A DNA stretch of 63,206 bases, filler included, from Kipferlia bialata (lineage: Eukaryota), in NCBI GenBank assembly GCA_003568945.1. It is 5 parts of 5 records of this genome, joined end to end, with 100 filler letters (N's around TTAATTAATTAA, not from the genome) between each part and the next. Parts side by side here need not be neighbours in the genome. Positions count along the whole stretch, not along the records: positions 35,517 to 52,430 come from BDIP01000562.1; 4 more parts are not named here. One strand, 5' to 3'. Shown one piece after another: positions 38,028 to 40,882 of this stretch. The notes beneath the pieces were generated by a model. It was not told the origin of the DNA. It worked only from the letters and a program-made list of their open reading frames with translations, and ran no database searches. A program made the position numbers and the translations under genes. Position 1 is the first letter of the stretch. Each line of letters opens with the position of its first letter.

Positions 38028-38504
38028 ATCATCTAACCGTAGCGGGTGCTCCTCTTTCTCACCCCCTCTCTCTACTATTGATATACCCTAACTCTAGCCG
38101 GTGCCCCCCCTCTCATTGACCTTGGCCAGACTCTCTCTCTCTCTCTCTCTATTATTGATGTTGTCTAACGCCAGCCGGTGCCCCACCCCTCATAGACCTT
38201 GGCCAGAGGGACATGGACGCTGCTGCCCTGAGGCCATCAGTACAGGCACTATTGATGGAGGTTATGCAGGTATATAGTGTATATATATAGTATATTATAT
38301 AGTATATATATTGTATAATAATATATATTGTCTGCCCTGAGGCCATCAGTACAGGCACTATTGATGGAAGTGATGCAGGTATATATATATATAATGTATA
38401 TATAGTGTATATGTATAGTATATATATATATAGTATTGATGCTGCTGCACTGAGGCCATCAGTACAGGCATTGCTGATGGAGGTTATGCAGGTATGTATA
38501 TATA

Positions 38505-38540
<36 letters not shown>

Positions 38541-40882
38541 TATAAATAGTGTATATATTGATGCTGCTGCCCTGAGGCCATCGGTGCAGGCATTGCTGAT
38601 GGAAGTGATGCAGGTATATGTACATAAATGTCTTCATTGTATTATACATCTCACTCTCTCTCTCTCACTCTCTCTCTCTCTCTCTCTCCCCCCTCACCCC
38701 CAGGTCTGTGCTGTCTCTGGGTGCACCAACATCCTGCACCTCAGGTAAGGATCATGGCAATGTACATATATATATATATATATACATACATATATATACA
38801 GTGTATATATATGTGTATGTATACAATGTATATATGTATCCGGGTGCACCAACATCCTGCACCTCAGGTATGTTCCATGTCGAGTGTATATCAATATGTA
38901 TCTGTATATATGTTGTATGCGTCTCTGTGTATAGGGTATTCATTCACATCGCTGATGGCTAGACCCTCTAGTGGCGTTCTTTGTGGACTCTATTTGTATA
39001 TATTCTACGGACATCTATTGGCCTATATTTCTCACCCTCTAGGTCCAGCCTCGAGGGCACTGGCTCTGATGACATATACCCGTATCTCTCTCTACATATA
39101 TATGTATATAAGTGTATGCATATATACATATACACACACCCTAGGTCCAGTCTCGAGGGCACTGGCTCCGATGACAAGTTACTGTTCACAGTGCAGGAGC
39201 CACTCAGTTACAAGCCAGCATACCCAGGTACACTACATCTGTCTCTCTCTCTCTCTCTCTGTCTCTAGCACAATGATATTTATATATATGCGTGACCTGA
39301 AAGAAGTCGTAATGGTCTCAGTCGTATGATTATTTATCTCTCTCTCTCTCTCTCTCTCCCCCTCTATATGCTATATATACTTACTGCCAGGCATTGGCAC
39401 TCTCTTCAGACACTGTGAGTACCTGTTTGACCAGTACGGACTGACACTGAGTGCCGAGACACTGCAGGTATATATATGGTATGATACACTGCCGCTGTGA
39501 CTGAGACCAATGATGCATATATACATGTGTAATAGTACATATATAGATATATATAGATATATATAGAGAGAGAGATTATACCTCACCTCTAGGCTTCTCT
39601 GGATGCCTCTGTGACCAAATAGAAATATATATATGTATATGAGTATATGAATAGCATACATACTGACCTCAGGCCTCCCTGGATGCCGCTGTGACTGTGA
39701 CCAATGAGACAGTGGACACACAGGCAGCATGCGCTGTGAGGTATGGTATATGTATATACATAGTGCATCCGTGACTCTCTATATACACCTTACCCATCAT
39801 GTCTGTCTTCTATTTCTCTCTCTCTATATATATATATATATCTTACCCTCTAGGTCTGTCTTCGAGGTGTCCTCCTGTGTCGAGAGAGTATCTCTGGTCA
39901 CTGGTACAGACATACCAGGTATGGATATATGTATATATGTATATATATATATATATATATATTCTATATGGAATAGAGGGAGAGGGGGAGAGAGAGAGAG
40001 AGAGAGATATAGAAAGAGAGAGAGAGAGTATCTCTGGTCACAGGCACAGACATACCAGGTATCTATATATGTGTATAGGTATATTTCAAATACTTAGAGG
40101 AATTTGTTCACACCCCCAGTGTCCCTTGTGGAGCGTCTCCAGACGGTGCCTGCATACTCAGACGCATACCTGGCACACGCCATAAAGCAGGTACAGAGAA
40201 TGAGACTCTTTAATTCTTAACGGTATTATGCATGGTCTCTTTAGTCTTGATATATGTATCTTCTGTATACTGTGCCTGACATCCTGCCAACGTTCAACGT
40301 TCGACGTTCAACGTTCAGCTTCTGTCCATGTAGTATTTAATATATATAGTATATATATAGTATTGTATGCTAACCCCTCAGATACTGTTCAGTGCCCCGG
40401 GTGACCTGAGGTTTGCATCCATGATGAGACCGGACACAGAGGCATTTATAATGGTCAAGGTACACTAACACTAATATACATAGTATATATATACCTCAGA
40501 CAGAGGCATTTGTGATGGTGAAGGTATAATATATAGATAGATGGATGGATAGATATAGATAGAAAGATAGATAGATGCATCCATGATGAGACCAGACACA
40601 GAGGCATTCATTATGGTGAAGGTGTGTGTATACACTACTGGTGAAGGTGTATGCTAAATATATATAATTCCAATTGAAACTAAGCCCAGACCCTCATGTC
40701 CCATATGGTTGGATCGCCTCTCTCTCTGTATATGTTAATTCATATATGTTTGAGTTATTCATATATATGTTTGTACATGTACATATATGCATATCTAACC
40801 CTCCAGACCCTGCTGTCCCACATGGTTGGGTCGGCCTCCACCGTGTCAGGACAGACCAACCACTCGGTCATCAAGGTATGGG

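Follow-up and report, generated by a model that had tools for sequence, protein, structure and literature searches.

Four copies of an exon end in an intron-rich Kipferlia bialata gene carry all four combinations of two silent markers, probably through exchange between copies

Kipferlia bialata is a metamonad, a free-living relative of Giardia. In a 63,206-nucleotide (nt) stretch of its genome (hereafter the window), along which all positions are counted and from which all of our counts are taken, we examined an intron-rich plus-strand gene (the focal gene) in which a 45–54 nt exon end, together with the GT that follows it, is repeated three times, head-to-tail, in the following intron. We refer to such intronic copies of exon boundaries as echoes. 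The four copies, the exon's own end (copy 1) and three echoes (copies 2–4), make up one direct-repeat family (D4; 38212–38282, 38321–38391, 38434–38504 and 38556–38626) with spacings of 109, 113 and 122 nt; the surrounding features are collected in Table 1. Copies 1, 3 and 4 encode an identical 17-residue peptide in the reading frame carried over from the neighbouring exons, and in copy 2 the last 15 codons match, the first two lying outside the homology. All 4 copies read CAG/GTAT across the junction, with an intact GT donor. Searched for as a degenerate pattern, the shared peptide followed by GT has 4 matches in the window and none in any of 100 shuffles.

Reading frames in the focal gene rest on a purpose-built exon finder that was checked on the annotated neighbouring gene KIPB_003076, where the frame was right for 4,819 and wrong for 70 of the 4,889 jointly called bases, and 817 of 5,706 exon bases were missed. 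The frame of the exon that holds copy 1 continues from the previous exon (37684–37766) and into the next; of its other two frames, one contains stops and one is open. Because the annotated model of KIPB_003076 uses the first donor in comparable arrays (see below), we take copy 1 to be the expressed exon end, copies 2–4 presumably being spliced out with the intron. The donor of copy 4 lies 90 nt upstream of the next exon, and the three focal unit lengths are not multiples of 3, such that units would break the frame if retained. The same exon is also echoed on its upstream side, where a copy of its start differs from the real start (38175–38207) by 3 changes, all silent and at third positions (CCA>CCC, CCC>CCT and ATA>ATT). 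Pfam and protein atlas comparisons gave the focal gene no name, and Rfam returned no family match in 36000–41000.

Table 1. Features of the focal array, its neighbouring exons and a second array of the focal gene.
Feature	Position	Strand	Description
Echo of exon start	38098..38130	+	33 nt after its own AG (38096–38097), upstream of the same exon; family D9, 82% over 77 nt
Exon taken as expressed	38175..38269	+	CC + 31 codons; last 51 nt (38219–38269) are copy 1; CTA TTG + GAG GTT; donor GT 38270–38271
Echo copy 2	38334..38380	+	15 codons + GT; CTA TTG + GAA GTG; shortest homology at 5' edge
Echo copy 3	38438..38493	+	D + 17-residue peptide + GT; TTG CTG + GAG GTT; private silent GCC>GCA
Echo copy 4	38560..38615	+	D + 17-residue peptide + GT; TTG CTG + GAA GTG; private silent TCG, GTG
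Next exon	38704..38744	+	13 residues onward; end echoed once at 38835–38870 with its own GT (family D10)
Eight-copy exon-end array, focal gene	46690..47663	+	Alignment of units; 8 kb downstream of the focal array

A sequence-only reading of this locus had described four copies with the same peptide and all four combinations of two multi-base synonymous markers, and alignment and frame reading confirm that description. The first marker pairs copies 1 and 2 (CTA TTG) against copies 3 and 4 (TTG CTG), and the second pairs copies 1 and 3 (GAG GTT) against copies 2 and 4 (GAA GTG). In terms of site patterns, 0011 occurs at 3 sites and 0101 at 2 sites, and all 6 cross pairs fail the four-gamete test. 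Three further changes, each confined to a single copy (GCA in copy 3, TCG and GTG in copy 4), are silent as well, so that every one of the 8 bases that vary within shared codons is synonymous. The statement that the copies have no amino-acid differences can be extended in this way, with the proviso that the comparison for copy 2 spans 15 codons, as the coordinates first assigned to it imply.

We compared this pattern with a null model in which four copies evolve on coalescent trees through synonymous-only single-base changes with a transition bias, keeping runs with 7–9 variable sites. Without recombination, a second, incompatible 2:2 split carried by at least 2 sites arose in 0–0.18% of runs, and a pattern of at least 3 sites on one split and at least 2 on the other in at most 0.09%. 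A second split by parallel mutation is still unlikely after allowing for the 11 surveyed arrays with at least 4 copies. The proposal that serial duplication alone is insufficient can now be given with a simulation probability of at most 0.002, which supports recombination or gene conversion somewhere in the history of the array. Copies 2–4 also share a decayed 5' edge, TATTG(AT), which points to a single founding echo, and with a single founding echo the second marker partition is incompatible with simple descent. A special TATTGAT motif at echo edges was considered and set aside, as the sequence is present at 26 places in the window and can be read as a decayed CATGGAC.

The sequence-only reading had further placed the exchange within the array and at codon-scale resolution. 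Neither point is shown by the data: the breakpoint is bounded only to the 7 bases between the markers, nothing indicates codon-aware exchange, and the markers look codon-like because variation is confined to silent sites. The exchange could instead have taken place between diverged functional alleles before these were copied into the array.

A four-gamete survey of all 11 arrays with at least 4 copies yielded 18 usable site pairs and had little power; 8 pairs are incompatible, 6 of them in the focal array, 1 in an array at 18883–19332 and 1 in the eight-copy array of the focal gene. In this last array the spacers are mosaics of long multi-base blocks. Two types of 5' spacer and two of 3' spacer, all longer than 15 nt, are combined in recombinant fashion; unit 2, for instance, joins a 5' half of the unit-6 type to a 3' half of the unit-3/4 type. 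A single Leu codon of the array occurs as CTC, TTA, TTG and CTA, and units 3 and 4 have near-identical flanks yet differ at one Leu codon (CTC versus TTG). The mosaic units demonstrate that exchange between units does occur in such arrays. As recurrent mutation is improbable in the focal array and exchange is visible in the neighbouring one, recombination or gene conversion somewhere in the history of the focal array is supported.

We therefore favour, as the probable explanation, a tandem repeat of an exon end and its donor in the following intron whose four-way mosaic came from exchange between copies, by unequal crossing-over or short gene conversion. At least one exchange would have had one of its ends within the 7-base interval that separates the markers; if an echo paired out of register with the real exon end and crossed over with it, for example, a hybrid unit would result.

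The focal array is one of many. The window contains 97 local direct-repeat families. Of these, 76 overlap an exon prediction, 42 on the donor side, 29 on the acceptor side and 5 without an assigned type, so that 71 of the 76 are exon-boundary repeats. Successive copies are spaced by a median of 105 nt (quartiles 92–123, n = 104), near the length of echo-free introns, and introns that hold arrays reach 340–955 nt. The best-anchored gene for these comparisons is KIPB_003076: the translation of a 302-residue exon matches this hypothetical protein of Kipferlia bialata at 100%, and the whole protein could be mapped exactly onto 38 exons (18718–32668) with 36 GT donors and 1 GC donor, the latter in the intron at 25640–25743. 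In the annotated model, the first donor is used in 6/6 donor-side arrays and the last acceptor in 4/4 acceptor-side arrays, the echoes all being skipped. Introns of this gene carry a branch-point-like CT[ACG]AC only about 3–6 nt before the acceptor CAG, and the motif lies within 14 nt in 31/37 of them. Such a short distance between branch point and acceptor resembles the fused 3' intron motif of Giardia and Trichomonas. In metagenome contigs, neither a relative of KIPB_003076 nor a match to the focal exon pattern was found. Literature searches brought up no paper on such repeats in Kipferlia, and none of the 10 papers listed out of 145 mentions the genus. The available text of the genome paper, which describes a SPAdes draft from HiSeq paired reads with 11,564 scaffolds and 124,912 annotated introns, does not mention boundary repeats, and the word stem "duplicat" has 0 occurrences in it (PMC5874029).

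Echoes across the window largely retain the appearance of usable splice sites. AG is retained in 32/35 acceptor-side echoes and GT in 62/69 of the donor-side echoes listed. A branch-point-like motif accompanies 23/32 of the acceptor echoes that keep AG, compared with 31/37 verified acceptors and 47/358 control intronic AGs. At echo donors, position +3 is a purine in 59/62 cases and position +5 is G in 32/62, the latter to be set against 24/37 verified donors and 100/558 control GTs. Homology extends at most 7 nt (mostly 2–7) into the intron in 43/67 donor-side and 21/35 acceptor-side pairs, some of the larger extensions reflecting mis-set junctions. In some pairs, 44–45 identical exon bases stand beside unalignable intron; where exon parts are 100% identical and the intron is unalignable right after GT, exon part and flank do not have a single shared history. 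A separate case lies at 47716–48033, where the first half of the exon at 47829–47916 is echoed upstream, complete with an acceptor, and its second half is echoed downstream, complete with a donor. The two echoes are at an offset of 115 and 100% identical over 40–44 nt, and the sequence between is unalignable.

Within the focal array, copy 2 has no AG within 30 nt upstream, and in copies 3 and 4 no upstream AG is preceded by a branch-point-like motif, the one example of the motif there lying at the homology edge. No donor was found in the exon where the homology begins, nor any in-frame route for including the focal echoes in the message. Mutually exclusive or tandem alternative exons were rejected because echoes start mid-exon and units are not multiples of 3. 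Recursive splice sites were likewise rejected, as no copy has a branch-point-like motif in the 14 nt leading up to its terminal AG; the pyrimidine share before these AGs is 0.3–0.4, compared with 0.78 at verified acceptors.

Differences between echoes and their exons are mostly silent. With the focal array excluded, we counted 106 silent and 42 replacement codon differences in the exon-finder frames, the changed bases falling 34, 17 and 112 times at codon positions 1, 2 and 3, respectively; silent:replacement counts in the shifted control frames were 23:129 and 10:138. Counted per echo–exon pair with duplicates removed, 113 differences are silent and 40 replacement (74% silent). Broken down by gene, the silent:replacement counts are 74:10 in the focal gene (88% silent), 11:2 in a helicase gene with Sec63 domains, 16:10 in KIPB_003076, and 6:8 and 6:10 in the remaining gene groups. 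Changes common to all echoes are 9 silent to 0 replacement, and frequent conversion could blur the polarisation of private and shared echo changes. The exon end at 42077–42139 (19 residues), with echoes at 42197–42259 and 42463–42525, has the most extreme silent divergence in the window: one echo (42077+386) has 9/19 codons changed, all silently, and the other has 8 silent changes and 1 replacement in 18 codons, and one more replacement (K>V) falls immediately beyond the second echo's aligned block. At 20875–21399 and 41013–41438, it is the echoes without GT (at 21222, 21354 and 41403) that carry amino-acid changes. A link between broken donors and replacement changes was dropped, as only about 3 copies were usable and the contrast was not significant.

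Simple models fail to produce the mostly silent differences between echoes and their exons, which stand beside retained splice signals. Treating echoes as frozen older exon copies, with neutral decay in the echo and silent-only change in the exon, predicts 39–45% silent differences; as 74% are observed (p < 1e-12), this model does not fit. On reasoning alone, selection acting only via rare conversion into the exon would need an exchange rate that also erases silent differences. Two readings remain, namely copying from functional exon ends, diverged homologues included, which needs very high natural diversity, and direct selection on the echoes for some use. Of these we prefer the first: the exon parts of echoes would be repeatedly overwritten from, or swapped with, functional exon ends on the same or a diverged homologous chromosome, and echoes overwritten in this way would carry only changes that selection had already passed.

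Several observations weigh against exchange between copies and the overwriting that we couple to it. There are only four focal copies, the case rests on two marker blocks 7 bases apart, and the focal spacers are TA-rich and supply no independent markers. The order, number, tandem placement and phase of the four types are as assembled from short reads and could be wrong, and the culture may contain more than one array allele. Outside the focal array, the four-gamete survey is nearly uninformative. Three of the five gene groups (those with 6:8, 16:10 and 6:10) show a weak silent bias, and echo-private changes, at 21 silent to 11 replacement, exceed the 27% silent expected by chance (p = 6e-6) and are far from pure. 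As for the diverged homologues, no diverged second copy of the long KIPB_003076 exon was found among proteins of 166–529 residues, only the window's own protein matched among those of 530–2000 residues, and a diverged second haplotype in this strain is without support.

Several other explanations were weighed. The echoes might be recent copies of different functional exon alleles in a very diverse population, made by homologue-templated repair or inter-allelic unequal crossover, in which case the mosaic would record ordinary population recombination. An allelic source accounts for the predominance of silent differences (113:40), for echo splice signals that look functional despite unalignable flanks, and for echoes identical to their exon beside others that differ silently at about half of their codons (9:0 in 19), and the frozen-copy alternative to it is rejected. 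We nevertheless judge it distinctly unlikely: it requires a silent-site diversity of about 0.15, the protein searches over both length ranges returned no second allele, the single 5' edge shared by copies 2–4 means that they were not born independently from different alleles, and identical exon parts next to unalignable intron point to separate histories of exon part and flank. An explanation that dispenses with exchange altogether, through recurrent parallel mutation at a few permissive silent sites, draws on the high silent divergence of the focal array, in which 7/15 degenerate codons vary, and on sites with one silent alternative (GAG/GAA), where parallel changes are likelier. Against the simulated frequency of a second split given above, and the need for identical changes at two adjacent codons, twice, it is the explanation to which we attach almost no probability.

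The array could also be an artefact of assembly, the four types existing in the reads and not as four tandem copies on one molecule, for example if a non-clonal or polyploid culture contains array alleles with fewer copies each, or if TA-rich spacers caused mis-threading. The fragmented short-read SPAdes draft (11,564 scaffolds; PMC5874029), the low-complexity TA-rich spacers of the focal array, and the odd gap blocks and homopolymer runs of the window make this conceivable, and an amphioxus array of comparable type is described as aberrantly assembled in a genome draft in the available text of its report (PMC3087553). The markers, however, lie within 18 nt, so each combination must exist inside single reads or k-mers; junctions from TA-rich spacer to mid-exon are impossible from a normal allele, which makes the partial copies real DNA; and the same architecture recurs at 71 typed families. 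A Kipferlia bialata sequencing run contains 91% of sampled 31-mers of 36500–41500, which is weak support for the assembled sequence as the run may be its source data. On balance an artefact seems improbable. Were the echoes instead functional coding exon ends, expressed in a subset of transcripts or following frequent somatic deletions between copies, they would be under direct purifying selection and the mosaic would be a by-product. The silent bias of echo-private changes, the preserved AG and branch-point-like motifs of acceptor echoes, the purine at +3 and enriched G at +5 of echo donors, and the replacement changes in the few broken-donor copies all speak for such use. The focal echoes, on the other side, have no acceptor or branch-point motif before them, no donor at the start of homology and no in-frame route, their units are not multiples of 3, the annotated KIPB_003076 model skips every echo, and the comparison of broken with intact donors draws on about 3 copies; we consider this very unlikely. 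Returning to exchange between copies, its most far-reaching form would have most exon boundaries accompanied by silent "spare" copies kept coding and splice-competent by selection because recombination swaps them with the expressed copy, a genome-wide set of interchangeable cassettes of which the focal array is one snapshot; we regard this extension as unlikely.

By their sequence, the Kipferlia repeats would be classed with the "mirage" type of minisatellite of amphioxus. As described in the available text of two reports, amphioxus mirages (in Adh3, the globins BflGb6 and BflGb9, troponin C and PGBD5) are tandem duplications of exon–intron boundaries on either side of an exon, with unit sizes from tens of bp to about 160 bp, in which many units keep AG/GT and normal splicing is undisturbed (PMC3087553, PMC3902484); concerted evolution and unequal crossing-over were inferred for them (PMC3087553). 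Kipferlia shares the head-to-tail units that span the exon–intron boundary on the donor or acceptor side: the focal array consists of four 109–122 nt units of exon end, GT and spacer, splice dinucleotides are kept in many units (4/4 in the focal array, and 62/69 donor and 32/35 acceptor echoes in the window), and exchange or concerted evolution is indicated by the incompatible partitions, the mosaic units at 46690–47663 and the identical exon parts beside unalignable intron. Differences in Kipferlia are mostly silent, whereas the available text of the amphioxus reports mentions no silent-site bias (PMC3087553, PMC3902484). Kipferlia also differs in that the host is a metamonad protist and not a chordate, in that the repeats are packed far more densely (71 typed families within 63 kb, a single exon often being flanked on both sides), and in that homology mostly ends 2–7 nt into the intron (43/67 donor and 21/35 acceptor pairs).

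Two further systems invite comparison. Human hypervariable minisatellites of the MS32 type also form mosaic arrays, through unequal exchange and conversion-like transfers between units; their units are non-coding, without splice sites or codon-periodic variation. Hellsten, in 2011, reportedly described intron gain by tandem duplication across an AGGT site. The same route is known as the Rogers model (cited in the available text of PMC3087553), and Kipferlia resembles it in having duplicated exon sequence with AG/GT ends inside an intron. In the Rogers model the start of the downstream exon is copied at the 5' end of the intron and the end of the upstream exon at its 3' end. We rejected a Rogers-type new intron because the arrangement is wrong: here the upstream exon end repeats with its own donor and spacer, so that an existing boundary has been copied.

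Mosaic units are what one expects of a minisatellite and carry little weight by themselves. What matters is the context: in this intron-rich organism related to Giardia, copies shadow almost every exon boundary across 63 kb, and they behave as if still coding and still spliceable. If true genome-wide, this would bear on how introns lengthen and multiply, on the way in which a reduced spliceosome selects the first among as many as eight donors of equal quality, and on whether recombination could impose protein-level constraint on sequence that is never expressed.

Other features of the window stand apart from the arrays. The helicase gene (10305–18268, plus strand) is Ski2-like with Sec63 domains (Pfam Sec63, E = 7.5e-6 on one 37-residue exon) and has exons of about 25 residues. 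On the minus strand, exons at 61000–63206 include a 5-copy acceptor-side echo array at 62324–62751; they carry motifs that we take, by resemblance, to be histone-deacetylase-like, no family match having been obtained. Four gap blocks (10091–10237, 18390–18489, 35417–35516 and 52431–52530) have an identical layout of 44 N, 12 bases and 44 N, and homopolymers lie near some gaps (47 C at 10091–10137; G/C runs around a 411-N gap at 56114–56524); both are probably scaffolding or sequencing artefacts. A filamin-type Ig-repeat frame at 52544–56029 on the minus strand runs uninterrupted for 1,162 codons (Pfam Filamin, E = 2.4e-8) and is intron-free, compared with exons of 33–119 nt in most neighbours. 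Finally, CG-containing codons (CGA, CCG, CGG, CGT and TCG) are rare in the long training open reading frames at 29686–32347 and 52475–56029, which suggests CpG depletion.

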